A stretch of DNA of 64,000 nucleotides from an uncultured Bacteroidia bacterium (GTDB lineage: Bacteria > Bacteroidota > Bacteroidia > NS11-12g > UBA955). Within the stretch, counting starts at the first letter, position 1, and each line of letters begins with the position of its first letter. Location of the stretch: contig CALKCM010000014.1 of NCBI GenBank assembly GCA_938086785.1, positions 2,467-66,466 on the forward strand, written 5' to 3'. The position numbers and the translations under genes were made by a program. The notes under the pieces were generated by a model. That model had not been told where the DNA came from, did no database searches, and was given only the letters and a program-made list of their open reading frames with translations. Shown piece by piece: positions 1,015 to 20,915 of this stretch.

Positions 1015-1034
1015 TCGCTTTTTTTGCAACAGAT

Positions 1035-2933: not shown

Positions 2934-3063
2934 TTTACTAAGCTCTCTAAAAATCTTCTAAGCCTGACATAAGATATCACTCAATGCCATATTATTCTGC
3001 CTTCCGATACTTTTATGCCTATGGGCTTATTTTGGTAGAAGTTGTATAAGGCAAGGCATAACC

Positions 3064-3150
3064 CCTAAACCTAATTTACTAACCCTAAACATTTGGGGGT
3101 AAACTATATATATTTGTGGTATGAAAAAGATGTTATTCTTGGTATTTGCA
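3064..3150 (+). repeat. Promoter + signal-peptide module P, copy 1 (copy 2 at 6281-6367)
   Basis: 87-bp near-identical direct repeat cctaaacctaatttactaaccctaaacatttgggggtaa...tatatttgtg(g/a)tatgaaaaagatgttattcttggt(a/t)tttgca; contains TATATTTG (-7 box) and encodes [10 protein letters not shown]. Confidence 0.95.
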
Positions 3151-3911: not shown

Positions 3912-3976
3912 GATTTTCGGGCTCCGGTTGCCCGTTAACTCCGGTAAATCACCCTGTTTGGGGCACTTGTCCCTAG
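3902..3976 (+). pseudogene. Orphan DUF285/BspA C-terminal cap
   Basis: Translates EPIGFSGSGCPLTPVNHPVWGTCP*, matching the 6084-6227 cap and the C-termini (PxWGTCPP*) of the two intact DUF285 genes. Confidence 0.9.
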
Positions 3977-3996
3977 AGACTAATTAAAAATATACC

Positions 3997-4024
3997 AAGC
4001 CTCTTCTTCGTAAGGGGCTTTTTT
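3997..4024 (+). terminator. Rho-independent terminator
   Basis: aagcctctt-cttcgt-aaggggctt hairpin followed by a T-run. Confidence 0.75.
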
Positions 4025-4086
4025 ATGCCATCCAATTGCCCAATTACCTCTATTTAGGTATATATCTATAAAAGGATATAATAGCC

Positions 4087-4369
4087 ACGGCAAATAAAAC
4101 GGGAATCAAGTATGGCGGTAGACAAAAAGGTACAGCAAGGCTTTTACAGGGCTTTTAGAAGGCAATATGGGAAGATTACAAGAGTTGCTCGATAAAGTCG
4201 CTGAAAAGAACCCTCAGAACTAATGTTAAAGCTATCAGAGTTTGTTCTTCCTAACCTAAGAGCTATCGAGGTTAATAATGAGCCAGAGGATAAGCATACC
4301 TCTCTAAATATTAATATAATTGATACTGGAGTTCCTTTGGCGAGTTGTGAAGCTGATGTGGTTGATTAG
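4087..4369 (+). pseudogene. Degraded small-terminase-like (GGRxKGT motif) gene, copy 1
   Basis: Begins with ACG (possibly a mutated ATG), then ANKTGIKYGGRQKGT; continues through frameshifts as GLLEGNMGRLQELLDKVAEKNPQ...LKLSEFVLPNLRAIEVNNEPEDKHTSLNINIIDTGVPLASCEADVVD*. Confidence 0.6.
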
Positions 4370-4402
4370 GTCACTCCCCCCTAAGATTATATATTTGTCA
4401 AT

Positions 4403-5812: not shown

Positions 5813-5838
5813 AAAACAGTCTTATTGCTCCACTTATA

Positions 5839-6039
5839 GGCAAGGTCCAAGAACTCTTCGATAAAGTCGCTGAAAAGAACCCTCAGAAAGCATTAGAATT
5901 ACTCTTAAAACTATCTGAATTTGCTTTACCTAAACTACGAGCTATTGAGGTTAATAATCAGCCAGAGGATAAGCATACCTCACTGAACATAAATATTATT
6001 GATACTGGAGTTCCTTTGGCGAGTTGTGAGGCGGATTAG
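5839..6039 (+). pseudogene. 5'-truncated small-terminase-like remnant, copy 2
   Basis: ~200-bp diverged direct repeat of 4169-4369 (GKVQELFDKVAEKNPQKALELLLKLSEFALPKLRAIEV...LASCEAD*). Confidence 0.7.
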
Positions 6040-6083
6040 TCTTTAAAATTGAATAGAGACAATTCATACTCAGTAATGATAAT

Positions 6084-6227
6084 ATGTTTGATAGGGCATC
6101 GTCCTTCAATCAAGATTTAACTCAGTGGTGTGTGACTTTAATTCCAAAGGAGCCACTTCTTTTTTCAGGGTCTGGTTGCCCTTTAACTCCGGCAAACAAA
6201 CCCGTATGGGGCACTTGTCCCCCTTAA
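6084..6227 (+). pseudogene. Orphan DUF285/BspA last repeat + C-terminal cap
   Basis: In-frame MFDRASSFNQDLTQWCVTLIPKEPLLFSGSGCPLTPANKPVWGTCPP*. Confidence 0.9.
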
Positions 6228-6231
6228 AAAT

Positions 6232-6282
6232 AGAATAGGCTTTATTCCCAATTACTGACAGTAAACCATTGGGCTATATACC
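6232..6282. repeat. Non-coding element E, truncated copy 1
   Basis: agaataggctttattcccaattactgacagtaaaccattgggctatatacc, matching the 7116, 14471 and 16084 copies; runs directly into module P. Confidence 0.9.
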
Positions 6283-6367
6283 TAAACCTAATTTACTAAC
6301 CCTAAACATTTGGGGGTAATATCTATATATTTGTGATATGAAAAAGATGTTATTCTTGGTTTTTGCA
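6281..6367 (+). repeat. Promoter + signal-peptide module P, copy 2
   Basis: Direct repeat of 3064-3150; TATATTTG at 6326-6333, ATG at 6338. Confidence 0.95.
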
Positions 6368-7111
6368 GCAATTGTAATGTTGGCAACAACATCAAGTAGT
6401 TTTTCAGGAGATGTTGGAAATAAGAATAGTAACAATAGCGAATGTATTAAGTGTAATGAATTTGAGGTTGGTGAAACTTTCGAGCTTGATGGTGTCACCT
6501 ATACGGTTGCGGATAGGAAAATGTTAGATGAAGCATTCGAAAAAGGTAAAGACTTGACAAAATATTGCACATCTAAAGTGGCTGATATGAGTAGTATGTT
6601 TACGAGAGCTAAATCCTTCAATCAAAATATTGGCAGTTGGGATGTGAGTAATGTGACTGATATGAGTGGGATGTTTTCGTTTGCTACATCCTTCAACCAA
6701 GATATAGGCAATTGGGATGTGAGTAATGTAACTAATATGGGGGGTTTGTTCTTACAAGCTGCATCCTTCAACCAAGATATAGGCAATTGGGATGTGAGTA
6801 ATGTGACTGAAATGAGTATTATGTTTTATAAAGCAACGTCCTTCAACCAAAATATTGGCAATTGGGATGTGAGTAATGTGACTAATATGTATGGTATGTT
6901 TGGGTTTGCTAAACTCTTCAACCAAAATATTGGAAATTGGGATGTGAGTAATGTGACTGATATGAGTAGGATGTTCTATGATAATCCATTATTCAACCAA
7001 GATTTATCACAGTGGTGTGTGTCAAAAATCCCTTCCATCCCGGTAAAATTTTCTTATATAAGCGGATTAACTCGGGCAAACCAACCTATATGGGGTACTT
7101 GTCCTCCTTAA
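6338..7111 (+). CDS. DUF285/BspA-family leucine-rich-repeat surface protein
   Basis: Signal peptide, CxxC N-cap, five 25-aa [25 protein letters not shown] repeats (75-bp period from 6584), terminal repeat and WCV...PIWGTCPP cap. Confidence 0.95.
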
Positions 7112-7115
7112 AGAC

Positions 7116-7244
7116 AGAATAGGCTTTATTCCCAATAACTGACAGTAAGCCATAGGGTTATATACCCGTTCTGAGCAAAGCCTTCAAATAAGAAGCCTAT
7201 CTTTTAAAGGGGTGTGGGGGTGTTAAACAAGAAAAAATAGTTCG
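7116..7244. repeat. Non-coding element E, copy 2
   Basis: Aligns by eye with 16084-16208 and 14471-14583 (tatacccgttctgagcaaag..ttcaaa.aagaag...ggtgtt.aa.aa.aaaa.tagttcg). Confidence 0.95.
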
Positions 7245-7255
7245 TTTTTTTCACG

Positions 7256-7281
7256 TTTTACTGACAGTTTTTACTGACAGT
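7256..7281. repeat. Tandem 13-bp direct repeat (ttttactgacagt x2), integrase arm-site-like
   Basis: Perfect tandem ~110 bp from the tRNA-fMet 3' end; the TTACTGACAGT core also occurs within element E. Confidence 0.8.
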
Positions 7282-7349
7282 TTTGTATATTCGTATAAAT
7301 CGTCAGCCCTTTAAAACCGGGTGATACGCAAAAGTAGAGTAGATGTCAT

Positions 7350-7378
7350 AAAAAAAGCCTCACATTTCTGTAAGGCTT
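7350..7378 (-). terminator. Terminator downstream of tRNA-fMet
   Basis: Minus strand AAGCCTTACAGAAATGTGAGGCTTTTTTT hairpin with U-tract. Confidence 0.8.
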
Positions 7379-7389
7379 GTATTTACTAG

Positions 7390-7461
<72 letters not shown>

Positions 7462-7555
7462 ATATATCTTTTTCTGCTTGCTGTGAAGCAGAAGATTCGC
7501 TTAAAAAAAGAATTAAATTAACTCCTCTAAAACCAATCTGTTTGTCTCAAATAAC

Positions 7556-7570
7556 GAGGTGCAAATCTAA
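7556..7570 (-). promoter_or_regulatory. Bacteroidota -7 promoter for tRNA-fMet
   Basis: TTAGATTTGCACCTC (TAnnTTTG); the identical 15-mer lies upstream of tRNA-Glu at 16396-16410. Confidence 0.7.
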
Positions 7571-7944
7571 CCTTAAATTCTCAATTGTACAAAAGGGAGC
7601 CGCTTTTATTTTTTAAAATATACTTGGCAGAGGTCGCACTACAGCAAAGGGAATAGCACTGCTCAAAATGCCCTGGATCTATACAATGGTTCATGATCTC
7701 ATCATAAATTAATCTCATGATAGCAAAAAAGAACGGCATAAATAAAATCGTAGAAGCCCGTTTAAGCTATAATTAAAGTCAAACGAATGTCAGATTGAAA
7801 TAATTTTATAGCTAAAATAATATCTTTAAGTGATTGAATTATATGTATACTTAAGTAGGCATTTCAATTTTATTTTTTTTGATGAATGAGTAAACTTTCT
7901 TAAAAGTAATTATGTTCCTCTCTATGAATTCATAAAAATAAAAT

Positions 7945-9084
7945 ATGATTAGAAAATCACTCAAAAACGCCTTAATCCTTATTGCCGGTCTATCCATGAC
8001 CGCAGCAGAAGCTCAAACCAATGTATATGATAATGTCATAGCTGTGAGTCCTGTACACACCTCCTTAAAAGCTGCAGTAGATAAAGCTGGCCTTGCCAGC
8101 GTACTTAAATCTGCAGATTCCAATTATACAGTATTTGCGCCGGACAATGCTGCTTTTGATCAATTGGCCAAAGACTTAAAAACAGACATTGCAGGATTAT
8201 TAGCCTTACCCAATTTAGCTGATATTTTATTATACCACGTTTTGGGAACCGAAGCAAAAGCTGCTGACGTAACAAACGGAGCTTTAGTAAACCCATTAGG
8301 AGGAACCAACAGCATTAAATTAACAAAATCAAAAGATGGAATGTCTATCCATGCCAATCAAGCTTTAGTAAATAGAGCCGATGTAGATGTAGATAATGGA
8401 GTAGTACACTCTTTAAATTCTGTACTCTTAGCTGGTGAAACAGTAGTAGATATTGCCTTAGATAATGGGTTTACCTCGCTAGCTGCCGCAGTAATAGAAG
8501 CGCGATTATTACCCGCTTTAACTGACCCATTTGGTATTGTAACTGTATTTGCACCAACCAATAAAGCCTTTGATGATTTTGCAAGTGCAAATAAATTAAC
8601 TATTGCTGAGCTTTTAGCCCTTCCAACTTTAGCCGATGTACTTACCTACCATGTAGTAAGTGGTTCAGTTAAAGCAGCAGATTTAACCAACGGAAATGTA
8701 ACTACCTTAAATGGAAAGGACGTGTTGGTAAATTTAGCCATGGGAGTAAGAATAAACAGTGCTACGGTAACCAAAGCAGATCTTACCGCTTCAAACGGTG
8801 TGGTGCATGTGATTGATGAAGTATTAGACGAAAAGTTTCTGAGCAGTAAAACACTTAATGCTCAAGTTATTTCTATTTATCCAAATCCAAGTTCTTCAGT
8901 AGTAAACATTGCCTTAAATAGTTCAAGTCCTTATTATATTACAGATATGACAGGAAGAGCCGTACGATCAGGAGTATTGTCAGAAAACACCTCTATCGAT
9001 ATTTCAGGCCTAACCAATGGAACATATGTATTAAACATTAATGAAGCAGACGCGAAATATGTCGCAACCTTCATCAAAAACTAA
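7945..9084 (+). CDS. Fasciclin (2x FAS1) domain protein with T9SS type-A CTD
   Basis: TVFAPDNAAF/TVFAPTNKAF, LLYHV and NGVVH motifs; C-terminal IYPNP...GTY...FIK. Confidence 0.93.
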   Translation: MIRKSLKNALILIAGLSMTAAEAQTNVYDNVIAVSPVHTSLKAAVDKAGLASVLKSADSNYTVFAPDNAAFDQLAKDLKTDIAGLLALPNLADILLYHVLGTEAKAADVTNGALVNPLGGTNSIKLTKSKDGMSIHANQALVNRADVDVDNGVVHSLNSVLLAGETVVDIALDNGFTSLAAAVIEARLLPALTDPFGIVTVFAPTNKAFDDFASANKLTIAELLALPTLADVLTYHVVSGSVKAADLTNGNVTTLNGKDVLVNLAMGVRINSATVTKADLTASNGVVHVIDEVLDEKFLSSKTLNAQVISIYPNPSSSVVNIALNSSSPYYITDMTGRAVRSGVLSENTSIDISGLTNGTYVLNINEADAKYVATFIKN

Positions 9085-9103
9085 CATTTTATTTTTCTTT
9101 CTT

Positions 9104-9129
9104 AAAGGCGGCCTTGGTCGCCTTTTTTT
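9104..9129 (+). terminator. Rho-independent terminator
   Basis: aaaggcggcc-tt-ggtcgccttttttt between convergent genes. Confidence 0.8.
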
Positions 9130-9157
9130 ATGGTATTTCTTTATATAGTTTATGTTC

Positions 9158-10003
9158 TTAAGGTTCAATGATTTCCATAAATAACCTAAACCCTACTTCG
9201 GGATGGCCCCATCCTTCGTATTTTTGAGACTGATCCGCATAACACTCAGAGATGAAACTATTCCAGCCTCCTCCTTTGGCTTTTCCTTCCTCCGAAACCA
9301 TTTCTGCTACATTTCCAATCATATCAAAAAGGCCATTTGCATTCATTGGATATTCGCCTACTCGGTTCATATATAAGGCTTTATCAGCCATGTATTCAGG
9401 AGCAGTTCTTCCTTCTGCTTCTACTATGGCAAATTTAATGTTAGCCATATACTTTAAATCGCTCGTGTAGCCTTTATCGCCATACCAAGGCAATTTTCCA
9501 CCAGGTAAGCAACTCGTTGCCACAATCCATTCCTCCTCTGTCGGCAATCTAAACGCTACCTTTTGGTAGGTTCTTTTTTTCATCGAGTTATACTCTTTCG
9601 TGAGCCATTTGCAATATTCCAATGCAGCACTGTATTGAATATTAACAATCGGGTAATCTCCATAAGCTGAATTTGAATGGTAATGTCTCATTAGTGACGA
9701 CGTATATGAATACGGATAAATCCTACTCCAATTTAGGGAGTCATACATGCATTGTTCATACAAGGCAGTATCATTCTTTCTTAGATGGTCAAGAAAGACC
9801 TTATAATTCGAATTTGTCAATTCATATTTGTGACATAATAAATTTTTGTCCAGAACTGGAATCTTTACAAAATTCTTATCTATCTGCTTAGAGGAAATAC
9901 TGCTATTTGGCCGCACGACTCTTCTTACAGTGAATCCTAAAATGGATGTTATAAGTATGCAGAGCAACATAAGTTTTGAGGATATTTTGAGTTTATGCAT
10001 CAT
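9158..10003 (-). CDS. FGE-sulfatase (SUMF1/GldJ/K-like) domain protein
   Basis: YPIVNI, FRLPTEEEW, NANGLFDMIGNVAEM, KGGGW and VGFRL motifs. Confidence 0.9.
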   Translation of the reverse strand: MMHKLKISSKLMLLCILITSILGFTVRRVVRPNSSISSKQIDKNFVKIPVLDKNLLCHKYELTNSNYKVFLDHLRKNDTALYEQCMYDSLNWSRIYPYSYTSSLMRHYHSNSAYGDYPIVNIQYSAALEYCKWLTKEYNSMKKRTYQKVAFRLPTEEEWIVATSCLPGGKLPWYGDKGYTSDLKYMANIKFAIVEAEGRTAPEYMADKALYMNRVGEYPMNANGLFDMIGNVAEMVSEEGKAKGGGWNSFISECYADQSQKYEGWGHPEVGFRLFMEIIEP

Positions 10004-10388
10004 TAAGTGATTTAAGTTTAGAACGTTTTATACTTGAAATTTATTATTTTGACATTTTTCGATGGATTCATAGCTATCTAATTTGGCTGATGCTTCATTT
10101 CTCGAAAAGCGAAAATAGGTTATTATATTGGAACATATAAATTCAGTCTTGGATAGTGGGTAAACGTTTAAATGGGTCCAGAGAGAGATAGAAAGAGGAA
10201 TTAGATGAGGAATATGAGAATTACAGGAATTATTGTAAGTGTTTGGAAGCCAGATGAACCTCCTTTATTAAGTTCATTTAAGCTGAGATTAAAAGAATTT
10301 ACTGAAGATTTTTTATATATTGCTGATAGGCATACATCTAAAATATTAGCTTATCGATAGGTAAATACCCAGTCAAGAAAAACCAGAT

Positions 10389-12131
10389 CTACTTTACAAA
10401 TTTCTTATGATAGGTCTGATTGCTATCGTTATTACTTAATAAAATAAAATAACTGCCTGATTTAAGCGATTCAATATTAATGGTTGTATTCGTTAAATCT
10501 CCATTCATCACTATCTTGCCCAAAGCATTAAAAATACGGTATGAATCCATTTTTACGTTTGAACTTACAGTGATTTGATTTTGTGCAGGATTTGGGTAAA
10601 TGCTAACTTCATCTCTATTTAATCTTTCATCATGATTATCACTTAAAGTAGAGGACCTCTGAATATCATCAAATAAAAACGTAGCCTTAGCTGATGCATC
10701 ATTTTGTGTTGCATAGCCTAGCATCAAGGTCAAAACATTATAAATGGGGTTGTCAAAGTTTGTAAAGTCCCAGGCATAGGTTGCCCATTCGCCAGAAACT
10801 GTAGTTAGTGCATCTCGTTCATCTGCGAAACCTGCTACATTACTTTCTATTTTAAATTTTAATATTGTACCAACAGGTGCATCTGTATATACTTTCATAG
10901 ATATAGATCCAATAGTAGAAAAGTCAGGAATAAATTCTGTTAATGCCAACTTGCTTTTTGCCCAAGGTGCTCCACCACTTCTAACGAACTTTCCCACCGT
11001 AGCACTAGGATTGTTAGCGTCTATATATGGATTTGGGATAACAGTGGTTATTCCTCCGTCCTCATTTATAAAGTCTGAAGTCACGACACTTGATTCAAAT
11101 CCAATGGGAAAAGTAGTTGCTCTAGGCTCAGGTATTACTGGGCCTACTTCTTGTTGTATATCATCAAACAGAAATATTGAAGTGGATGTCCCATCTCCTA
11201 TATTTCCAAAATCAAAAAGGAATTGTATTCTATCATAATCACTGGCTTGTTTGTGAAAATTCCATGTTGCAGTTTCCCATGAGCCAGAAACGGTAGTTAA
11301 ATAATCTATGTTTGTTTTGCCATCTGCGTTTTCTAATTCCAACTTAATTCGAGTTCCCACAGGGGCTGTTGTATACACTTTCATAGATATTTGCCATTGG
11401 GTTGAAAAATCAATGTTCTTATCAATAAATATTTTACTTCCAGCCCAAAAATCACCCCCATCGCGTATAATTTGGGCTACCTTGGCACTTGGATTAATTC
11501 CGTCCACCCGAGGGTTTGCAATGACCATTGCAGTTGCTCCACTGAAATTTAAAAAGTCAGTATCCACTTCTCCCATTTCGAAATCAATGGGTAAAGAAAG
11601 TTTTGTTGGGGCTTTGGGTCCAGTTACTTGTTCAATATCATCAAAGTAAAACGTGGAATTGGCAGAACTATCTCCTACATTTCCAAAATCAAACATAAAA
11701 ACAATCTCATTAAGAGTATTAGGTATACCAACAAAGGTCCATTCCAAAGTTTCCCATGCGCCAGAGACAGTTGTAATAGCATCCATATCTACAGATGATC
11801 CCGACCCTTCCAATTTAAACTTAACCTTTGTACCTGCGGGCGCAGAGGTATATACTTTCATTGAAATTTTTGTCAATACAGAAAAATCAAGATTTTTAGT
11901 CAATAAAATTTTACTGCCAGCCCAAATGGCTTCCTCGTTTCTAATAATTCGCGCAACAGAATCGCTGGTATTAATTCCCGATGGATTCGGGTTGGCCGTC
12001 ACAATTCCCACTCCTCCATCAAAATTAACGAAGTCCTTGGTTGTAACATCTCCTTCGAAATGAATAGGTAAGCTCTGGGAAAATCCTGATTGTGCAATCA
12101 GTAAAATGAGTATTAGATAAGAGTTCTTCAA
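10389..12131 (-). CDS. T9SS type-A secreted protein with three tandem CBM-like beta-sandwich domains
   Basis: TTG at 12131 gives signal peptide MKNSYLILILLIAQSGFSQ; three ~155-aa repeats (PIxFE...ISMKVYT.AP.GT...FDDI); IYPNP CTD. The ORF-track extension to 12284 reads through the end repeat. Confidence 0.85.
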   Translation of the reverse strand: MKNSYLILILLIAQSGFSQSLPIHFEGDVTTKDFVNFDGGVGIVTANPNPSGINTSDSVARIIRNEEAIWAGSKILLTKNLDFSVLTKISMKVYTSAPAGTKVKFKLEGSGSSVDMDAITTVSGAWETLEWTFVGIPNTLNEIVFMFDFGNVGDSSANSTFYFDDIEQVTGPKAPTKLSLPIDFEMGEVDTDFLNFSGATAMVIANPRVDGINPSAKVAQIIRDGGDFWAGSKIFIDKNIDFSTQWQISMKVYTTAPVGTRIKLELENADGKTNIDYLTTVSGSWETATWNFHKQASDYDRIQFLFDFGNIGDGTSTSIFLFDDIQQEVGPVIPEPRATTFPIGFESSVVTSDFINEDGGITTVIPNPYIDANNPSATVGKFVRSGGAPWAKSKLALTEFIPDFSTIGSISMKVYTDAPVGTILKFKIESNVAGFADERDALTTVSGEWATYAWDFTNFDNPIYNVLTLMLGYATQNDASAKATFLFDDIQRSSTLSDNHDERLNRDEVSIYPNPAQNQITVSSNVKMDSYRIFNALGKIVMNGDLTNTTINIESLKSGSYFILLSNNDSNQTYHKKFVK

Positions 12132-12230
12132 AATGGCTTTAAAAATTTGACACAAAATTAACTCCTGAATAGCTCTCAAACAAAACAACGGTTTTAAAAA
12201 ATATGGCTGAAACTTATTAGTTAAAGAACC

Positions 12231-12295
12231 TAAACCGATGCCTTGTGACATAAAAAAACCTATAACCGAATGTGAAACAATCAATTACAGGTTTT
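12231..12295. repeat. tRNA-Glu-flanking end repeat R, copy 1
   Basis: 55-bp core 12241-12295 is identical to 14615-14669 and 16252-16306. Confidence 0.97.
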
Positions 12296-12404
12296 AGTGG
12301 TAGAGGCTGTGAGGCCGAAATCAAATTTGTAGACTTATGCCATATTTAAACCAAATCCATTGGTTCGATAAATGTTTTGCAGTTATAAAACTGCTGGGTA
12401 TTGT

Positions 12405-14276
12405 TTAGCCTTCGCCATTGCGAAAACCATCAATATCGTACCCTTCTAATCTGCCATTGCTGTCAAAAGGAAAAAATGGAAACAGCAACTCATTTTTTAG
12501 TTTTTTATTGTAAGCCTTTTTAAGTGCTTTATCCATGGTCTTTGGTTTAACATCATAGTGTGCTATAATTTTATCCAAAGACAGATTAATTATTGTTATG
12601 AAGTTCACATATTGAACTATTGAAAGACCTTCCTTGAATTGTCCATTTTTTAAATTGTTCATTACCTCCGAATAGGTTATATACAATAGCTTTGTTTTTT
12701 TGGTGAGATTAAGTTCCTCTATTTGTCTTGATTTTGATTCAAATTGTTCTGAAATTAATCGGAATTTTCTAATTCCCTCGAGGCGATCGTCCAACATATC
12801 TTTTAATCCATCAATAACACTAGCTTTATTACAATAGAGATAATATACTTCTCCGTCACTTTTTGAGGACGAGGGATTCGTTAAGCGATTTGGATTAAAA
12901 TATGCTTTCGATTGATAACTCTCTTTTAATACATCATTAATATCCAGATCATTCAAACTATTTATCGCTCCCTCCTGAAAGTATCGATAAAAAGCCATAT
13001 CCTTAGACTCAAGGGAAGAGGTTATTATGTTTTCTTCTTCTTTAATCCTTTTACTTAGGTTTGAACTTAGTGAATTAACTTCTCTCTTTGAAATTAATAT
13101 TTTACTTAGGGAATCGGCTTTATCAAAGGAGATCTGAGTTTTTTTATCCAATCTTTTCAAGTCACTTTTTTTATATCTGTAGCCAGTATATTGTTTGATA
13201 TACCTTTTAACATCGTTATAAGAGTTAAAGGCGTCAAAATATAATCCAGAGCTAAATGACTTTTCTGCTTTTTCGTAGCCCCTGATGTTGTCCATTTTAG
13301 AGAATTTCGCCTTCTCAAGAACTATGTTACATCCCCCAGATATAGACTCACTTCTACTGTAGCGTTGGTAAGTTAAATCACCTGTGATATGTTTGTATAA
13401 AAACCAATCTGATTTCATCATGTACTTAAAGTAATCTTGAATGTATTTAGTCGGAACACTGTTGTAGCATAAGGTATCTAAATCGTAACCCGCGTTTTCG
13501 AGTTCTTCCAAAGAAGCTCTTTTTAAATCTAAAAATCTTTGATTCCTCTCAGCATTTAACTCAGGATTTAAAGATGTTGAACCATCCAGTATTTGCCCGC
13601 TGCCATTACGACCAATAAAATCTGTCATATATTTATCTTTAAATGTAATTTCAAAAGTTTGGTTTTTATTTAAAAAATCCAATTTCCACGTACCATTAGA
13701 ATAGCTATTTAGATCATAGTTTCCATTAACTTTTAATACACCTACTTCATTAATAATTACATTGCCTACAATTCTTCCTTTGCTAAAATTCATACTCGTG
13801 GTTATATTATTTTCTGGATTGTACGCTCCCCAACCGGTGTACCTACTATACAACCTTGTTTTATTTTTAGAGTAATATTTCCAATTTCCGTCGGCTAAAC
13901 CATTTTTGTAATTGGCTGTCAACGTTATAGTCCCAGTAGCGTGATAATATCCCAAAAAGTAATCATTCATAACAAGTTTGTACGTCCAGGTTCCATGCTT
14001 GAGTCCCTTTTCATAATTCCCAGAAATGGTTTGTCTTAGCCCTTTATTATCGTCTTTGCCATTTAAGCTATAGTTAAAGGCTCCTTGCTTGACATATTCT
14101 CTTGTTTTTGGATCTTCATAGTATTTATAATCTGCTTGACCCGGTTGATTACTTCCGTTAGCAAATGAGCCACTATAGGTCTTTAATGACTGTCCATAAC
14201 TGCCCGCAGATATAAATAAGAATAGTGAACATAAGCAGGTCGACAGATTGATTTTTCTCTTTCTAATATAATTCAT
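12405..14276 (-). CDS. Secreted hypothetical protein: N-terminal MORN-like beta region, helical C-terminus
   Basis: ATG at 14276 follows the TAACTTTG promoter (14283-14290); signal peptide; GNYEKGLKHGTWTY and ANYKNGLADGNWKY motifs. Confidence 0.8.
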   Translation of the reverse strand: MNYIRKRKINLSTCLCSLFLFISAGSYGQSLKTYSGSFANGSNQPGQADYKYYEDPKTREYVKQGAFNYSLNGKDDNKGLRQTISGNYEKGLKHGTWTYKLVMNDYFLGYYHATGTITLTANYKNGLADGNWKYYSKNKTRLYSRYTGWGAYNPENNITTSMNFSKGRIVGNVIINEVGVLKVNGNYDLNSYSNGTWKLDFLNKNQTFEITFKDKYMTDFIGRNGSGQILDGSTSLNPELNAERNQRFLDLKRASLEELENAGYDLDTLCYNSVPTKYIQDYFKYMMKSDWFLYKHITGDLTYQRYSRSESISGGCNIVLEKAKFSKMDNIRGYEKAEKSFSSGLYFDAFNSYNDVKRYIKQYTGYRYKKSDLKRLDKKTQISFDKADSLSKILISKREVNSLSSNLSKRIKEEENIITSSLESKDMAFYRYFQEGAINSLNDLDINDVLKESYQSKAYFNPNRLTNPSSSKSDGEVYYLYCNKASVIDGLKDMLDDRLEGIRKFRLISEQFESKSRQIEELNLTKKTKLLYITYSEVMNNLKNGQFKEGLSIVQYVNFITIINLSLDKIIAHYDVKPKTMDKALKKAYNKKLKNELLFPFFPFDSNGRLEGYDIDGFRNGEG

Positions 14277-14470
14277 TTTCGCAAAGTTATACAAAGTATG
14301 TTCTAGGGAATAGCCCATTTGCAGCCCATATATAGTAGAATATTATTTGAGTAAATATGTTGTAAAAACGCATCATAGATTTGTGGTATAAAAAATATAT
14401 TTGTATTTTTTCTGTTGTTCGGGATAGTTCTCTTCGGCTGTAAGAAAAAAGATGTTGAAACCTCCGATAA

Positions 14471-14681
14471 TCCCAATTACTGACAGTAAACCATTGGGCT
14501 GTATACCCGTTCTGAGCAAAGCCTTCAAATAAGAAGGCCTTATTATAAAGAATACGGAGGTGTTGAATAAGAAAAGTAGTTCGGATTTTTTTGGGATTTA
14601 TCTGTAAACCGATACCTTGTGACATAAAAAAACCTATAACCGAATGTGAAACAATCAATTACAGGTTTTTAAGTGTAGCCC
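14471..14681. repeat. Element E (copy 3) + end repeat R (copy 2) + partial tRNA-Glu 3' end (att-like)
   Basis: ~210-bp direct repeat of 16095-16318, ending in aagtgtagccc, which is the tRNA-Glu 3' end and flank. Confidence 0.95.
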
Positions 14682-14809
14682 CTAAGGTTCGATTCTCGAA
14701 CACTTTTACTGAGAACTTAAGCGAGCTGTACAACTTGAAACATTTACTTATAGAGCAAGAAATCATTGGTGATGGTGGCGGTTCCCTTTATTTAAAAGGA
14801 TTTCCTTAA
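14675..14809 (+). other. Putative att junction / recombinase C-terminal tail remnant
   Basis: Reads VAPKVRFSNTFTENLSELYNLKHLL..., starting exactly where the tRNA antisense reads VARRGIEP; gtagccc-c-ta-a-gg vs gtagccc-g-ta-g-gg, and tcgaac is retained. Confidence 0.5.
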
Positions 14810-14963
14810 TATTCTAATATTCCTTAGAGTCATTAAACTACAGTAGATAGATAACTTGGTAGATTTATTATTATTAAAGAGATAGACTTACTAAGGTTAG
14901 TGTTCACGCCAACACCTCCTTATTGTCAATAATTGGCAAATTATAATTGTTTACTTTTGGCAA

Positions 14964-16070
14964 ATGAAAAAATTATTTTTAGCAATATTAGTTTTAGGTG
15001 CAATTCTAAATGGCTGCAAAAAAGAAGAGGTTGTAGAAACCACAAAGGAAATAGTTAGCACCGCTTCAGACTTGCCTCAAGTTACCACTGGGAATCCAAT
15101 AGTTACAGATACTGCTTTAATTTTATCTGGAGAAGTTACATTTACTGATGGAGACGATTCTACTACAAGAGGAATCTGTTGGAGTGAAAGTCCAAATCCA
15201 ACAACAAACGACCAAAACTATCTGGATACCGCAACTGGTTTAGGTACTTTTAGTGTTAATGTATTCTCTCAACTTGAACCAAATACAAATTATTATATTC
15301 GAGCATTTGCTGAGAACTCGGTAGGTAAAGTATACGGAAATGTGGTTTCTTTCACTACAAATTATTTTAATCGTAATAATGCATATATAAATTCAAAAGG
15401 TTGCTTGGAATGTAATAAATACGAAGTAGGAGACACTTTTACAATACAATATACTAATTATATAGTTGCAGACAGAGAAATGCTTGATGACGCATTACAA
15501 AATGGCGAAGATTTAACAAAATATTGTACATCCAAAGTGACTGATATGTCAAATATGTTTAATGGCGCTCAATCCTTCAATCAAGACATAGGCAATTGGG
15601 ATGTAAGTAATGTGACTTCTATGGGTGGTATGTTTCATATGAATGAATCCTTCAACCAAGACATTGGCAACTGGGATGTAAGTAATGTGACTGATATGTC
15701 AGCTATGTTTCAGATTACTCAATCCTTCAATCAAGACATAGGCAATTGGGATGTGAGTAATGTGACTGATATGTCTGGTATGTTTACAGCAGCATACGTC
15801 TTCAATCAAGACATTGGTAATTGGGATGTAAGTAATGTGACTAATATGGTTATTATGTTTGCATCAGCATACGACTTCAATCAAGACATAGGCAACTGGG
15901 ATGTAAGTAATGTGACTTCTATGCGAGGGATGTTTAATATGAATGAATCCTTCAACCAAGATTTAACTAAATGGTGTGTAAAAAATATCGCTGTAATGCC
16001 AGATTTTTTTTCCGCAAATAGCAATTTTTCAATTACATATCATCCAGTATGGGGCACTTGTCCCCCTTAA
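14964..16070 (+). CDS. DUF285/BspA LRR lipoprotein with N-terminal Fn3-like domain
   Basis: Lipobox LNGC; RGICWS..PNPT...LEPNTNYYIRAFAENSVG; five 25-aa repeats from 15543 plus terminal repeat and HPVWGTCPP cap; TACTTTTG promoter at 14952-14959. Confidence 0.95.
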   Translation: MKKLFLAILVLGAILNGCKKEEVVETTKEIVSTASDLPQVTTGNPIVTDTALILSGEVTFTDGDDSTTRGICWSESPNPTTNDQNYLDTATGLGTFSVNVFSQLEPNTNYYIRAFAENSVGKVYGNVVSFTTNYFNRNNAYINSKGCLECNKYEVGDTFTIQYTNYIVADREMLDDALQNGEDLTKYCTSKVTDMSNMFNGAQSFNQDIGNWDVSNVTSMGGMFHMNESFNQDIGNWDVSNVTDMSAMFQITQSFNQDIGNWDVSNVTDMSGMFTAAYVFNQDIGNWDVSNVTNMVIMFASAYDFNQDIGNWDVSNVTSMRGMFNMNESFNQDLTKWCVKNIAVMPDFFSANSNFSITYHPVWGTCPP

Positions 16071-16083
16071 AAATAGAATATCG

Positions 16084-16312
16084 ATAGGCTTTATTCCCAA
16101 TTACTGACAGTAAAGCATCGGACTATATACCCGTTCTGAGCAAAGTATTCAAACAAGAAGCCTATATTTTAAAGGGGTGCGGGGGTGTTAAACAATAAAA
16201 ATAGTTCGGATTTTTTTGGGATTTATCTGTAAAACGATACCTAAAACGATACCTTGTGACATAAAAAAACCTATAACCGAATGTGAAACAATCAATTACA
16301 GGTTTTTAAGTG
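16084..16312. repeat. Element E (copy 4), tandem 12-bp repeat (taaaacgatacc x2, 16230-16253) and end repeat R (copy 3)
   Basis: Direct alignment with 7116-7244, 14471-14670 and 12231-12295. Confidence 0.95.
16263..16307 (-). terminator. Terminator hairpin downstream of tRNA-Glu (also present in the R copies at 12252-12295 and 14626-14670)
   Basis: Minus strand ACCTGTAATTGA/TCGGTTATAGGT stem with G-U pairs, followed by a U-tract. Confidence 0.7.
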
Positions 16313-16384
16313 TAGCCCGTAGGGGAATCGAACCCCTCTTACATGGATGAAAACCATGCGTCCTAGCCGATAGACGAACGGGCC
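16313..16384 (-). tRNA. tRNA-Glu (TTC)
   Basis: GGCCCGTTCGTCTATCGGCTAGGACGCATGGTTTTCATCCATGTAAGAGGGGTTCGATTCCCCTACGGGCTA cloverleaf. Confidence 0.97.
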
Positions 16385-16437
16385 ATTGTTAAAATGAGGT
16401 GCAAATCTAAGTTGTGTTTTTCAAAAAAACCACACTT

Positions 16438-16803
16438 TTAGAATTTTTTTATTTTGGCATCTCCCCAAAGTTCTTCTAGCGCATAAAACTCCCTTTTGTC
16501 TTTTAAGAAAATATGAAGTACCACGTTCACAAAGTCAAGCACCAACCACTCCGATTCTTGACCTACTCCCTCGCGAACAAAGGGCTTTTCGCTGAGTTGC
16601 TTGCGAGCAAAATCCTCTGCACTATCTACCAATGCCTCTAGTTGTTTATAATTACTTCCGCTGCAGATGACCATAAACTCTGCAAATGTATTTTTTAGAT
16701 TTCTCAAATCTAAAGAGACAATATCTTCTCCTTTTTTTTCTTCAAGACCAGCCACAAGTACATTTACGAGTAATTCTGATTCACTTATTTCGGTTTTTGC
16801 CAT
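16438..16803 (-). CDS. rsfS: Ribosome silencing factor
   Basis: EKKGEDIVSLDL, WLVLDFVNVVLHIF and REFYALEELWGDA motifs. Confidence 0.96.
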   Translation of the reverse strand: MAKTEISESELLVNVLVAGLEEKKGEDIVSLDLRNLKNTFAEFMVICSGSNYKQLEALVDSAEDFARKQLSEKPFVREGVGQESEWLVLDFVNVVLHIFLKDKREFYALEELWGDAKIKKF

Positions 16804-16838
16804 ACGTGGTTTTAACTTTGTGCAAAGGTCAACAAAAA

Positions 16839-17600
16839 ATGGGAGATATTGAACTGTATTCAGAAATAGCTAATATGACCGTCTGGTCCGTTTCAGAATG
16901 CGAATCCACCTTTGATGTTTTAAAAGATCTCCCCGTCGCAAAAAACAAGTACAATGCCGTGTTTACGTTTAACCAAACCGCCGGCAAAGGGCAGTTTAAT
17001 CGAAAATGGGCATCCCAGCCCTTTAAAAACATAGCACTTAGTATAGCCATTCCGCTAAGCCCAGATATGGCGGCAAATCCTACCTTATTTAACATGCATT
17101 TGAGTACTGCTGTTCTTGCTGCATTACAAGACCATTGCCTTGCCGATTTAAGCATAAAATGGCCCAATGATATTTATGGAGAAGACAAAAAACTGGCGGG
17201 TTTTCTAATGTCTATCCTCAGCATTAAACAGAACAAGTTCTTTCAGTTGGGTTTAGGTATCAACATAAATCAAATAAAATGGGCTGTAGACATCCCCAAT
17301 CCTACCTCCTTGAAAATCTTAAATAATCAGGAACAGAATTTACATGCAATCCTAAAGGGTATATTAAATCAGATTCAAAACAGTGTAGAAACCTTTAAAT
17401 TAGGGAATCACAAAGAGATCTTGGGTGCATTTAATAAAGGCCTGTGGCGAAGGGGGGAAAATGTAAGCTATGCTGCAGAAGGCAAAGATCCGGAACAGGG
17501 AATTCTCTTAGGTATCAATGGAAAAGGCCAAATACAGCTTACCCATGCCCGCGGAATACAGTCATTCCATTTAGGGGAAGTTCGGCTTCTACCCAGATAA
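16839..17600 (+). CDS. birA: Biotin--[acetyl-CoA-carboxylase] ligase (no HTH)
   Basis: QTAGKGQFNRKW, IKWPNDI, KKLAGFL and GLGININ motifs; ATG at 16839 follows TAACTTTG (16813-16820). Confidence 0.9.
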   Translation: MGDIELYSEIANMTVWSVSECESTFDVLKDLPVAKNKYNAVFTFNQTAGKGQFNRKWASQPFKNIALSIAIPLSPDMAANPTLFNMHLSTAVLAALQDHCLADLSIKWPNDIYGEDKKLAGFLMSILSIKQNKFFQLGLGININQIKWAVDIPNPTSLKILNNQEQNLHAILKGILNQIQNSVETFKLGNHKEILGAFNKGLWRRGENVSYAAEGKDPEQGILLGINGKGQIQLTHARGIQSFHLGEVRLLPR

Positions 17601-17656
17601 TTGTTGTAATTGTGATGCAACCTTTTTATCTTCGGGCAGTCAAATAGTTGAATATC

Positions 17657-19321
17657 ATGAATAGAAGAGAGTTTTTTTCTGCTTCCCTTCCTAAAACGGA
17701 GGGAGTTTCGGAGCTTAAACAAGTAAAGAAAGTAGAGCGCAGAACCAGTTCGGGAATATCTGAATATACAGGTACATGGAGCCAATGGGAAGTAAAGCAC
17801 TTGCTATCCAGAGCTCTTTTTGGATACAATCATGCAGATTTGGCCAAATACGGCGCTAAAACCATGTCAGAAACCGTAGCCGAGTTAATTAATATTGATG
17901 AAACCGTGCCGGACCTGCCAATCAATGACTATAGTTTTAATACAACCGATCCATACTGCCCAGAAAATGCCATTTGGTTGACAACCCGGTCTTCCAATAA
18001 TTTTGGAAGGCGAATGAGCCTAAAAAATTGGTGGATGAAACACATGATTTCGGATGGGACCATTCGCGAAAAGATGACGTTGTTTTGGCACAATCATTTT
18101 GCCGCAGAGTCTGCTGCGATTGCTGATGCGCGCATGGCTTACGTTTACCTTGCCCTTTTACGCAAACATTGCATGGGTGATTTAAAGGTTCTTACCAAAG
18201 AAATGACCATTGATCCAGGCATGTTGAAATATTTAAACGGTTATGTGAATTCAAAGGAAGCACCCGATGAAAACTATGCCCGTGAACTGCAAGAACTTTT
18301 TACCCTAGGAAAAGGCCCAGAGAGTAAGTATACTGAGGATGACGTGAAAGCCGCCGCTCGAGTATTAACAGGTTGGAGAATTGATTATTCTAAGAATCCA
18401 CCCGTTCGACTTTTTCAGAGCAGCAGGCATGACGAAGACGATAAACAGTTTTCTGCCTTCTATGGAAATAAGGTCATTAAAGGCCAATCTGGAGCAACTG
18501 CCGGAGAGGGAGAACTCGACGAAATGCTAGAGATGATTTTTGCTAAAAGCGAGGTATCCAAGCACATTATTCGGAGGTTATATGTCTTTTTTGTATACTA
18601 TGAGATAGATGCAGATACCGAAGCCAACGTTATTGAGCCTTTGGCCCAATTGTATGAAACAAATAACCACAACATTAAACCAGTCATAGAAACGCTTCTT
18701 AAGAGTGAGCACTTTTTTGATCAAGCCAATAGAGGATGCATCATTAAGCCACCCTTAGATTATATGGTGGGTTTTGCAAAATCGGGATACGTAAATCTAC
18801 CAGCAAAAACAGAGAGCAATGCAGTGCGTTATTCCCACGAAAAATATATTAACGATATCTGTGTAGGGAGCGAACAGGCCTTATTAGATCCACCAGGTGT
18901 GGCTGGCTGGCCAGCCTATTATCAAGCGCCCTCATTTCACGAAGTGTGGATTTCGAGTAATACCATGCCTACACGAGTTTCTGTGATGGGACAGTTGGCC
19001 TATAACGGACGAAAAAGCCAAGGCTATACCCTTAAAATGAATTTGTTTGAAATTGCAGAAAATACATCCAATCCCAGTGATCCAAATGTTTTGGTAAGCG
19101 AATGCCTCGATTATTTTTTACCCATGCCATCATCCGAAAATTTAAAGGCAAGCACCAAAGAATTTTTGCTTCCTGGCGGTTTGCCAGATTTTAACTGGAC
19201 CACTATTTGGAATACCTACAAATCCGATCCTGGAGACGCAACCAATACAAAAACCTGCACGGACTTACTTACCTATATGATCTATAGTATTTTTAACTTA
19301 GCCGAATTTCAACTACACTAA
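17657..19321 (+). CDS. DUF1800 family protein
   Basis: REKMTLFWHNHF, DENYARELQELFTLG and DVKAAARVLTGW motifs. Confidence 0.93.
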   Translation: MNRREFFSASLPKTEGVSELKQVKKVERRTSSGISEYTGTWSQWEVKHLLSRALFGYNHADLAKYGAKTMSETVAELINIDETVPDLPINDYSFNTTDPYCPENAIWLTTRSSNNFGRRMSLKNWWMKHMISDGTIREKMTLFWHNHFAAESAAIADARMAYVYLALLRKHCMGDLKVLTKEMTIDPGMLKYLNGYVNSKEAPDENYARELQELFTLGKGPESKYTEDDVKAAARVLTGWRIDYSKNPPVRLFQSSRHDEDDKQFSAFYGNKVIKGQSGATAGEGELDEMLEMIFAKSEVSKHIIRRLYVFFVYYEIDADTEANVIEPLAQLYETNNHNIKPVIETLLKSEHFFDQANRGCIIKPPLDYMVGFAKSGYVNLPAKTESNAVRYSHEKYINDICVGSEQALLDPPGVAGWPAYYQAPSFHEVWISSNTMPTRVSVMGQLAYNGRKSQGYTLKMNLFEIAENTSNPSDPNVLVSECLDYFLPMPSSENLKASTKEFLLPGGLPDFNWTTIWNTYKSDPGDATNTKTCTDLLTYMIYSIFNLAEFQLH

Positions 19322-19340
19322 TTTTAGAGAGGAACATCAA

Positions 19341-20915
19341 ATGAAAAGAAGAAATTTTTTAAAAGCAACCAGCCTTCTTCCCTTAGGAATTGGAGGTCTT
19401 GGATTTAAAAATTTGAGTGCTACCCCTTTCCTAGCCTCATTAGGCTTAAAGGCGGCAACCAACGATAATATATTAGTTTTAATACGATTAAGTGGAGGTA
19501 ATGACGGACTCAATACCGTTATTCCATTAGACCAATACACAAACCTGAGCAAAGCCAGGAGCAATGTATTAATACCCGAAACCGAAGTTCTTAAACTTAC
19601 AGGTACGGATAATACAGGGTTACATCCATCCATGACAGCCATCAGAGGCATGTATGATGAGGGATTGGTAAATATTGTACAATCAGCAGGGTATCCAAAT
19701 CCAAATTTTTCGCATTTTAGATCTACGGATATATGGAATTCAGGAAGTGATTCTAACCAATTTTGGGACACCGGTTGGCTAGGAAGAGCCTTGGATAAGG
19801 AGTATCCGGGGTACCCCACGGGTTATCCAACTTCAGATATGCCCGATCCTTTAGCCTTAGGAATAGGTACTTTTTCTACTGTAACGCAAGGTCCAACGAA
19901 TCAAATGGGAATAGGGGTAAGTAATCCCAATACCGTGTATGATTTAATTAATGGAAATACCGATACTGCACCCAATTCAAAATATGGAAAAGAGCTCGCC
20001 TATATTCGCTTGGTAAACGAGCAAACCAATGTATATACAAAAGCCATAAAAGCAGCCAGTGATAAGGGAGAAAACTTAAGCACCAAATACCCTACAGGTG
20101 TAAGGGGAAATAGTCTTAGTGAGCAATTAAAAATAGTTGCAAGGCTTATTTCTGGAGGCTTAAAAACCAAAGTATATATGGTTTCCATAGGTGGTTTTGA
20201 TACCCATGCAAGCCAAGTGGATGCAATGGACCATAAAGTAGGAACTCATGCGAATTTGCTAAAAACACTATCTGATTCCATTGGTGCATTCCAAGATGAT
20301 TTGAAACTCTTGTCCTTGGACGAAAGAGTGGCCGGAATGACCTACTCTGAGTTTGGACGAAGAATTAAGAGTAATTTAAGTGGTGGTACGGATCACGGGG
20401 CAGGAGCGCCCATGATGGTATTCGGCAAGAACGTTCAAGGCGGCATTTTAGGAAATAGTCCGGTTATACCCGAAACAGTAGAAGTGAAGGACAATATACC
20501 TATGCAGTTTGACATGCGTCAGGTGTATGCCAGCACCATTAAAGATTGGTTTGGAATTACAGGATCCACTCTTACAGATATTATGGGCAAGCCCTATGAT
20601 ATTTTACCCATATACAAGAGCAGCAATGTTTCCATCAATGATTTTGAGGATTTAGTGAGTAATATTAAGATTTATGAGCCTTTCCCAAATCCGGTGGACG
20701 ATGAAGTAAATCTTAAATTTAAAACCGATGGGGGTACTATAGCCATTCGTATATTTGATCCCTTAGGGAATCTTATAAAGCAGGCATTTACAGGAAGAGT
20801 AGCCTCGGGAGAGCAAATAAAAACCTTTAGCTTAAAAGGAATGAGCAGTGGAAACTACTTTATTCAGTTGGCTCAAGGAACCAAACGGGTTAGTTCCGTC
20901 ATTATTAAGAAATAG
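19341..20915 (+). CDS. DUF1501 family protein with T9SS type-A CTD
   Basis: MKRRNFLK; LSGGNDGLNTVIP, SHFRSTDIW, GGFDTH, SEFGRR and GTDHG motifs; C-terminal FPNP...GNYFI. Confidence 0.93.
   Translation: MKRRNFLKATSLLPLGIGGLGFKNLSATPFLASLGLKAATNDNILVLIRLSGGNDGLNTVIPLDQYTNLSKARSNVLIPETEVLKLTGTDNTGLHPSMTAIRGMYDEGLVNIVQSAGYPNPNFSHFRSTDIWNSGSDSNQFWDTGWLGRALDKEYPGYPTGYPTSDMPDPLALGIGTFSTVTQGPTNQMGIGVSNPNTVYDLINGNTDTAPNSKYGKELAYIRLVNEQTNVYTKAIKAASDKGENLSTKYPTGVRGNSLSEQLKIVARLISGGLKTKVYMVSIGGFDTHASQVDAMDHKVGTHANLLKTLSDSIGAFQDDLKLLSLDERVAGMTYSEFGRRIKSNLSGGTDHGAGAPMMVFGKNVQGGILGNSPVIPETVEVKDNIPMQFDMRQVYASTIKDWFGITGSTLTDIMGKPYDILPIYKSSNVSINDFEDLVSNIKIYEPFPNPVDDEVNLKFKTDGGTIAIRIFDPLGNLIKQAFTGRVASGEQIKTFSLKGMSSGNYFIQLAQGTKRVSSVIIKK

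Follow-up and report, generated by a model that had tools for sequence, protein, structure and literature searches.

Several forms of tandem accretion at RNA genes have been described, and they are characterized here from excerpts of the respective sources: the tycheposons of Prochlorococcus comprise tandem elements separated by partial tRNAs as well as degenerate remnants (10.1101/2020.12.28.424599), an additive island is marked by recurrent copies of the final 20 bp of its tRNA (PMC10872708), cis-mobilizable elements (CIMEs) and their accretion have been defined for ICESt1-type islands (PMC5704250), and 15 integrase-less islands that were proposed to be cis-mobilizable lie in tandem at ssrA of Dehalococcoides (PMC3146451). 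The current study deals with a 64,000-nt stretch of DNA (the window) of an uncultured Bacteroidia bacterium, located on contig C14 (CALKCM010000014.1) of the metagenome-assembled genome (MAG) G000 (GCA_938086785.1; 1.54 Mb, 22 contigs, 70% complete), in which two single-gene units are stacked behind tRNA-Glu. Our comparison indicates that this locus is probably an additive flexible genomic island at the tRNA-Glu 3' end, formed by tandem accretion of integrative elements that are now devoid of recombination genes, i.e., of CIME-like remnants. It is a structure of a known kind, neither an integron nor a new class of system.

The locus extends from a gene for a protein with a carbohydrate-binding module (CBM) over T_A-GTAG, unit E2 (P637), R_B-T_B-GTAGCCC, unit E1 (DUF285), and R_C-T_C to tRNA-Glu(ttc) (16312 to 16384, minus strand; ARAGORN; Rfam tRNA, 54.4 bits), the presumed integration target and, according to ARAGORN, the sole tRNA-Glu gene of the assembled genome. 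T and R are the two modules of a recurring repeat, namely, the tRNA-Glu terminator hairpin and a segment of ~130 bp. The 55-mer that the first-pass annotation had reported in triplicate is present at 12241 to 12295, 14615 to 14669, and 16252 to 16306 (0 mismatches; three matches in 0 of 100 shuffles), with spacings of 2,374 and 1,637 bp re-measured by repeat analysis, and its proximal copy stops 5 nt short of the tRNA-Glu 3' end. The repeat exceeds 55 bp, since 65 to 83 nt are common to all three copies and copies B (14468 to 14687) and C (16092 to 16324) have 220 to 233 nt in common with an identity of 85%. T spans the final ~70 to 80 nt ahead of the tRNA and consists of a direct doublet, an A-run, a hairpin, and a T-run. 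The proximal module T_C (16242 to 16311) contains the doublet TAAAACGATACC twice, A7, the hairpin, which resembles a bidirectional terminator, and T5; the middle module T_B (14605 to 14674) has one CGATACC box, and the distal module T_A (12231 to 12295) shares its 55-nt core with T_B and T_C. R_C (16092 to 16230) contains the palindrome TTACTGACAGTAA and is located behind the stop codon of the DUF285 gene, and R_B (14468 to 14604), the second full R copy, is 85% identical to it.

Both units are bounded by direct repeats with the target 3' end, T_A and T_B around P637 and T_B and T_C around DUF285, and contain one long open reading frame (ORF) each and no integration or transfer genes. The earlier description of one surface or secreted protein gene per interval agrees with the ORF listing and Pfam, and a TAnnTTTG-like motif can be read from the sequence within about 15 nt upstream of each start; the genes have their own promoters. 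E1 encodes a DUF285 lipoprotein of 368 aa (14964 to 16070, plus strand; PF03382, E value of 1.5e-66), and E2 encodes the secreted protein P637 of 623 to 637 aa (12405 to 14276/14318, minus strand), so that the two cargo genes lie on opposite strands.

Dehalococcoides is comparable in that its tandem islands are bounded by a 20-bp repeat of the target 3' end and its integrase belongs to the large serine recombinases, which are also represented in the element of metagenome contig L082 described below; it differs in its target, tmRNA, in its much larger islands, and in a conserved, identified integration module (all from the excerpted source, PMC3146451). The tycheposons, as far as the excerpt describes them, resemble our locus in the marine host, in tRNA-targeting tyrosine-recombinase elements lying side by side with partial tRNAs between them, and in fragmented integrases and partial tRNAs as fossils, and their cultures are heterogeneous for excision (10.1101/2020.12.28.424599). 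The host phylum and the very short partial tRNA of our locus are different, and the window revealed no replication module. CIMEs, in the excerpted definition, are matched by integrase-less units with att-type repeats on both sides, stacked at one target 3' end with the newest nearest to the target and apparently derived from larger elements by decay (PMC5704250). Here, however, the repeats are located mostly downstream of the tRNA (65 to 220 nt) and include just 4 to 13 nt of it, the units consist of one gene, and conjugation or mobilization genes were not seen; any mobilization by a neighboring element would be putative. The additive island (fGI-2) has in common with ours, according to the excerpted text, a streamlined aquatic host, tRNA-end repeats that punctuate a strain-variable region, and cargo mostly of unknown function (PMC10872708), whereas the repeat of our locus has a terminator hairpin and the module R shared with islands at other tRNAs and its cargo encodes cell-surface proteins. 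As in an additive island, the same chromosomal site carries different gene content in close relatives, for which five states were found.

An integron has an intI-type tyrosine recombinase gene adjoining its array, its cassettes end in attC and recombine at a GTTRRRY-type core, and these promoterless cassettes of one orientation are read from a common promoter. The locus is similar to the extent that small gene units form an ordered array at one site, the newest nearest to the insertion point. It lacks intI, however: the nearest genes are rsfS/birA and the CBM gene, and none of the three PF00589 matches of the genome is located on C14 (PF00239 and PF00665, none), in agreement with the earlier statement that the window contains no recombinase gene. 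Nor does it have attI or attC, its boundaries being direct repeats of the tRNA-Glu flank that end in GTAG(CCC), with the T hairpin bounded by the tRNA end, and own TAnnTTTG-like motifs and opposite gene orientations take the place of a common promoter. For these reasons, the label "integron-like" given in the first-pass annotation is not supported.

Scars and left ends at T junctions

Evidence for serial insertion comes from the sequences adjoining the distal repeats. As previously noted, the middle copy ends in tRNA 3' nucleotides (tgtagccc, identical to 16311 to 16318), and the remnant of the tRNA-Glu 3' end between the two units (14675 to 14687, minus strand; the seven terminal bases GTAGCCC exact, 13 nt with 2 mismatches) has the form of an att-type scar; T_A keeps GTAG of the tRNA end. 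Each scar is followed by a left end, in E1 by a noncoding segment (14682 to 14887) that opens with the small palindrome GGTTCGATTCTCGAAC and in E2 by a segment (12296 to 12404; GTAG, then AGGCTGTGAGG) that represents a diverged copy of a recurring GACTCTTATCGAATCTTTAGACT-type end and is 95% identical to that of the metagenome contig L095. T copies from the genome and metagenome loci were listed in two sets (13 and 22 rows), with one row cut by a contig end and some overlap (L075/L076 duplicate L043/L044, and L090 appears to match G027 C6). T is joined to tRNA-Glu in 6 of the 13 and 9 of the 22 rows; away from the tRNA, at least GTAG of its 3' end is kept in all complete rows (7/7 and 12/12). 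The scar is 4, 7, or 13 to 16 nt long, constant for each junction type, and beyond it a few left ends recur: GTAGCCC with C/ATA..GGTTCGATTCTCGAAC in copy B of the window and L082, GTAGCCC with CTAGGAGCCTTAAGTCGAAC shared by G025 and L085, the GACTCTTATCGAATCTTTAGACT-type found in a diverged form in copy A of the window and further in G027 C6, G064 C8, L084, L087, and L088, and a type of ~240 nt common to G063 and G065.

The left end of E1 is shared with a recombinase-carrying element. Positions 14675 to 14887 of the window and 10229 to 10017 of L082 are 95.3% identical over 213 nt and have the same T-GTAGCCC junction, whereas the neighboring T is just 84% identical. In L082, this left end opens an element of >10 kb that codes for two recombinases, a large serine recombinase of 532 aa (PF00239, 2.5e-24) and a tyrosine integrase of 433 aa (PF00589, 6.8e-19). 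Its other products are an FKBP_N lipoprotein, DnaJ-domain and MerR-like proteins, and a phage-like protein of 106 aa. This element was seen from one end, the other not being recovered, and none was found at an intact tRNA-Glu. T also has the gene for the 106-aa protein as its neighbor in G063, in G064, and on several metagenome contigs. Homologues of P637 are present in L095 (97% aa identity) and G064 (61%), each followed by a T copy, but the G064 homologue, which adjoins the same kind of T junction, has no R-T on its other side. Because of this context and the left end of L082, the units of the window look like eroded, shortened forms of larger elements rather than like purpose-built mini-elements.

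According to the mechanism that we propose, attP of an incoming element would comprise its own T with R behind it, a short identity with the tRNA 3' end, and the left end; recombination at the tRNA end would place the new element beside the tRNA, and each insertion would displace the older T with its tRNA-end scar outward. The insertions would have been made by a site-specific recombinase that is now absent or unassembled, and the units would be deletion derivatives of larger elements. Present gains and losses would depend mainly on homologous recombination between the 55- to 220-bp repeats, possibly assisted by the integrase of a sibling element in trans. The extension of the repeats to 200 bp past the tRNA would follow from the terminator-region copy that each element brings along, with gene conversion keeping the copies identical.

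The first-pass annotation had assumed that an integration duplicates the tRNA 3' end only, which is contradicted by an element on contig C4 of the same genome, outside the window (C4:372-5607; L003/L018). This 5.1-kb element is bordered by tRNA-Met on one side and by a partial copy of it (68 nt) on the other, carries a tyrosine integrase gene split by a frameshift, and is missing from G001 of the same genus, in which tRNA-Met runs directly into the R-bearing flank. Its direct repeat consists of 68 nt of tRNA-Met and 37 nt of the downstream terminator, so repeats extending past the tRNA end are normal for elements of this lineage.

Tandem T pairs at tRNA-Glu were also found in two other genomes: in G025 the copies lie 1.9 kb apart and enclose an rve gene, and in G063 the distance is 2.65 kb, with three ORFs and no integrase. 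In G025 (C10; L036, 7245 to 9232), the two T copies of ~110 bp, ~95% alike by eye, enclose 1.9 kb with a 432-aa rve-family transposase-like ORF, to which an IS6-type transposase fragment is adjacent; the transposase gene may be an unrelated insertion sequence (IS) insertion, and a PF00665 profile search of the 70%-complete genome G000 revealed no rve gene. The scar GTAGCCCCTA(A)GG of copy B and of G025 (loci: window, 14675 to 14690; L036, ~7340; L019, ~1215) is as similar to the tRNA-Arg(cct) 3' end, which reads GTAGCCCCGCTAGGAATCG in G001, as to that of tRNA-Glu. Judging from this resemblance, the element type of copy B and G025 may come from, or may also use, a tRNA-Arg site.

Locus states among close relatives

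The number and content of the units vary among close relatives, as the comparison proposed in the first-pass annotation had anticipated, and five states of the locus were distinguished. G000 has two units. The 126.9-kb metagenome contig L095 shows the CBM gene, T_A, P637, R, T, and tRNA-Glu without the DUF285 unit and is collinear with the window (95.8% identity over 10584 to 14335 and 90.1% over 16090 to 19441). Sequencing run X4 (about 94% identical) covers T_A-P637 at a depth of 9 to 12 and the flanks at 12 to 15, with a depth of 0 over 14678 to 15011; uncovered parts of runs X3 and X4 were counted only where the flank depth of the same run was given. An empty site, in which the CBM gene is joined directly to T and tRNA-Glu, is represented in run X2 of another study by a 333-nt contig (depth of 111.9) that joins 12251 to 16264. 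The flanks in X2 (5 differences in 1,473 nt) have depths of 102 to 114, the P637 contig has a depth of 10, and the unique part of E1 (14678 to 15345) has depths of 0 to 6. Since de Bruijn contigs can cross short repeats, the empty site rests on these depths as well as on the joint. In the remaining two states, L094 (RsfS, 99% aa identity) and G001, other genes lie beside a partial R-T-tRNA-Glu. In run X1, contigs unique to E1 have a depth of 19 to 19.5 vs 30 to 37 for the flanks.

Homologous recombination has left traces in the repeats. The flanks of T_A in L095 are orthologous to those of the window, but its 55-nt core differs at 10 to 11 of 55 positions from the proximal T of L095 and from T of the window. 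In G000, the core of T_A is identical to those of T_B and T_C, although R_B and R_C are just 85% alike. This combination of an identical core in G000, a diverged core in L095, and orthologous flanks identifies a gene-conversion tract in T_A and backs the alternative of the first-pass annotation, i.e., RecA-type recombination acting on the repeats. In the single R of L095, R_B-like and R_C-like positions are combined in a mosaic. The repeats are thus subject to homologous recombination, which alone could yield the deletion seen in X2.

Weighing of the explanations

Serial insertion at tRNA-Glu is supported by the terminal tRNA bases kept in distal repeats, the same junction types in unrelated genomes, and the left end shared with a recombinase-bearing element. 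From the interpretation of the first-pass annotation we thus retain serial insertion, variability, and the RecA option, whereas the integron-like label, the mini-elements, and a recombinase in trans, for which no candidate was identified at the tRNA-Glu site, find no support. Several observations weigh against accretion by site-specific integration. No tRNA-Glu-specific recombinase was found in the 70%-complete genome or at the loci examined, and no intact recombinase-bearing element bounded by two T copies was recovered. The integrase family of the C4 element adjoins tRNA-Met or tRNA-Asn, never tRNA-Glu (a tRNA is present at 9 of 14 loci, several of which overlap), and the copy of G000 itself is frameshifted; the serine recombinase of L082 has homologues of just 23 to 33% identity in the other family (66 genomes), and none was detected in G000. 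The difference between G000 and L095 is no clean indel of one unit, given that 130 to 175 bp upstream of P637 differ too. The X2 joint comes from a Logan de Bruijn assembly, which could walk through a repeat of 43 to 55 nt. Circle junctions (~16311 to ~14682; 14674 to 12296) are not among the joints listed, 22 further joints lying outside that list, and contigs drop rare forms, so that this absence speaks neither for nor against excision. Finally, with a mosaic R and a converted T, much of the present variation could be due to homologous recombination alone.

The last point leads to the alternative that the tRNA flank, R-T with a few tRNA bases, was duplicated once by illegitimate or unequal recombination and that RecA-dependent exchange with incoming DNA has since swapped surface genes between the repeats, i.e., a replacement-type island that formed without site-specific integration. 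The conversion tract of exactly the 55-nt core in T_A, the mosaic R of L095, a deletion form joined inside an identical repeat, and the absence of a recombinase from the contig and of one for tRNA-Glu from the genome all fit this explanation, as do the 5' and 3' flanks shared by paralogous cargo genes (DUF285 3' end plus R; signal-peptide region). It leaves unexplained, however, why the distal T copies all stop at GTAG(CCC...) with a fixed scar length per type in many unrelated genomes, why the same noncoding left ends stand next to different cargo, and why the left end of E1 occurs at the head of a recombinase-carrying element. Recombination as the sole cause is therefore unlikely in our view.

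Doubtful to a higher degree is the idea that the R-T units are the ends of minimal integrase-less carriers, each with a promoter, one surface gene, R with a ACTGACAGT-type box, and the T hairpin with CGATACC doublets, which would be moved at tRNA-Glu by a sibling recombinase and would have counterparts with other terminators at tRNA-Met, tRNA-Asn, and tRNA-Arg. If true, this would be an integron-like, tRNA-anchored cassette system of streamlined marine Flavobacteriia that shuffles cell-surface proteins and is common to several bacterial families.

We see only a slim chance for an active, integron-like capture of single-gene mini-elements (promoter, gene, R, T) that are inserted singly at tRNA-Glu by the recombinase of a sibling acting in trans. 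Small T-bounded units without a recombinase exist in three genomes (G000, 1.6 and 2.4 kb; G025, 1.9 kb; G063, 2.65 kb), forms with no, one, or two units occur together in nature, the most recent unit lying beside the tRNA, the reduced depth of E1 in X1 is a weak hint of within-sample heterogeneity, and the conserved hairpin and covarying doublets of T might be protein-binding sites by their appearance. On the other hand, no integron feature is present, the ends of P637 and E1 belong to larger elements elsewhere, an identical unit was seen neither at another site nor at another array position, the joints listed include no circles, no candidate recombinase was found in this genome, and homologous recombination suffices for the losses.

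That a short-read assembler was led by the three repeats to stitch unrelated pieces behind tRNA-Glu is very improbable despite the 22-contig, 70%-complete MAG and unitigs of the probable source run that break at the repeats, because the exact repeat (55 to 71 nt) is shorter than usual read lengths, contigs of X1 and of X3 from another study (14640 to 14867 and 14650 to 14886) cross T_B into the E1 left end, L095 and X4 show T_A-P637, L095 independently presents P637, R, T, and tRNA-Glu in the same order, and the layout tRNA-Glu, T, R, DUF285 recurs in G027 and L086.

Modules, distribution, and neighboring islands

Of 191 genomes of the order, 21 contain R/T sequences. In the own family of G000, 3 of 124 other genomes are concerned (G001 and two weak matches in one genus), compared with 17 of 66 in a second family, to which three genera contribute 13 (of 28), 3 (of 11), and 1 (of 1) genomes. 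R is also located beside tRNA-Met, tRNA-Asn, and tRNA-Arg genes in a few marine Flavobacteriales genera, and in G001 R and the doublet part of T adjoin tRNA-Arg(cct). A tRNA gene is present within ±1.5 kb at 11 of 25 R/T loci (Glu, 6; Met, 3; Asn, 2, the latter overlapping), and the orientation of R relative to the tRNA is constant at these loci. An exact 39-mer scan gave no match in the metagenomes, and the scan of genome contigs matched contigs of G027 and G064 only. The patchy occurrence across families is more compatible with horizontal spread than with a tRNA flank of ancestral origin. The locus offers a worked example, from an uncultured small-genome marine Flavobacteriales lineage, of a tRNA hot spot that gains and loses surface-protein genes, with empty, one-unit, and two-unit forms visible in public metagenomes. 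For studies of gene flow in the ocean, a C4-type integrase that is 96 to 98% identical between two bacterial families and a noncoding module R with a rare palindromic box, common to islands at four different tRNAs, may be of use.

The C4-type integrase of the other family is intact in G027 C25 and truncated in G071 (96 to 98% aa identity), with G064 likewise holding a copy of this identity, and in G035 it is 92 to 100% identical but broken; the family scores only 33 to 35 bits on PF00589. One genome of that family has a near-identical copy at tRNA-Met, and another has one at tRNA-Asn. The intact 7-kb element of G027 C25 lacks R. As the enzyme acting at tRNA-Glu, the C4-type integrase finds no support, since at the loci examined it adjoins tRNA-Met or tRNA-Asn only.

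The T hairpin has 13 predicted pairs, six of which show compensatory changes among 10 copies from different genomes. T is placed to terminate tRNA-Glu on the minus strand and the convergent DUF285 gene on the plus strand; T_A lies just downstream of the P637 stop. The T doublet, with a spacing of 12 nt, covaries by lineage (CGATACC, CAATACC, and CCGCCCC/CCGACCC). R is present five times in the genome (window positions 6243, with the first 40 nt only, 7127, 14468, and 16092; C4:135-274), following DUF285 genes or gene remnants, and is found 3' of tRNA-Met in the window, of tRNA-Glu, and of the second tRNA-Met on C4. Of the 13 occurrences of ACTGNCAGT in 1.54 Mb, 7 are located within R copies or the doublet 3' of tRNA-Met. 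A sister structure at tRNA-Met (7389 to 7461, minus strand) comprises an R copy and two ACTGACAGT boxes 13 nt apart (7127 to 7283). The same pair is present 3' of tRNA-Met in L034, L095, and L062, and in L068 and L070, two such boxes with the same 13-nt interval stand between the integrase start and the copy of tRNA-Met, so that the motif is found on both arms of the tRNA-Met att region, with R adding one copy. By sequence, ACTGACAGT and the T doublets look like arm-type recombinase sites.

Other readings of the modules were rejected. An Rfam scan of 5000 to 18000 at an E value of ≤1 gave the two tRNAs and two chance-level matches only, so R and T represent no described RNA family. R is probably noncoding, with stops in every frame by our reading. 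A miniature inverted-repeat transposable element or other transposon does not apply to R-T, which has no terminal inverted repeats and no target duplications and has just five R and three T copies in the genome, six of these eight beside tRNA genes or in their arrays, with the partial R at 6243 to 6282 located 1.1 kb from tRNA-Met. An attC-like crossover site between cassettes in the first 40 nt of R was also considered and dropped. The junctions at window position 6254, in G001 (L039), and in L095 are mutually homologous, including the downstream promoter and signal peptide, and the three therefore represent one event that was later copied.

With respect to the neighborhood, the CBM gene (10389 to 12131, minus strand; TTG start in our reading, 12284 in the ORF list) encodes a CBM_4_9 protein with a C-terminal signal of the type IX secretion system (T9SS) and corresponds to the third T9SS gene that had been noted beyond the last repeat copy; positions 10660 to 11870 contain three internal repeats of ~480 bp. 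On the other side, rsfS (16438 to 16803, minus strand; PF02410, E value of 2.2e-28) is followed by birA in the window and adjoins tRNA-Glu also in G001, L094, and L095. P637 has no Pfam family and no PHROG match and shows weak MORN-like repeats near its N terminus. The DUF285 protein of E1 is 62% aa identical to a paralogue encoded at 6338 to 7111, and its gene contains six tandem 75-bp repeats (15500 to 16010; 65 to 86% identical to the reference copy), each corresponding to a single repeat unit of DUF285, with many length variants and joints among metagenome contigs in this region.

Positions 1 to 7388, 3' of tRNA-Met, have the look of a second island with many ORFs lacking a Pfam or PHROG family. 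It contains a MORN_2 protein gene (4403 to 5812), the DUF285 paralogue (6338 to 7111), two R pieces, and, at 5794 to 6282 (plus strand), an N-terminally truncated gene for the 106-aa element protein (5794 to 6039), a fragment of the DUF285 3' end, and the initial 40 nt of R; the product of the ORF at 1932 to 2933 is 83% aa identical to that of an ORF on metagenome contig L085. Behind tRNA-Ala/tRNA-Met of G001 (contig C95; L039, 10020 to 12152), two paralogous genes for secreted proteins of 274 and 258 aa, whose repeat region resembles a coiled coil, have R pieces between them, and their promoter and signal-peptide sequence is common with the window genes at 3121 to 3657 and 6338 to 7111. In a complete genome of the other family (G039:C1:3036000-3066831; L034+L035), convergent tRNA-Met and tRNA-Glu genes bracket an island of ~25 kb that has inverted R-like sequences at both ends and contains IS21- and IS3-type genes, surface protein genes, and fragments of C4-type integrases.

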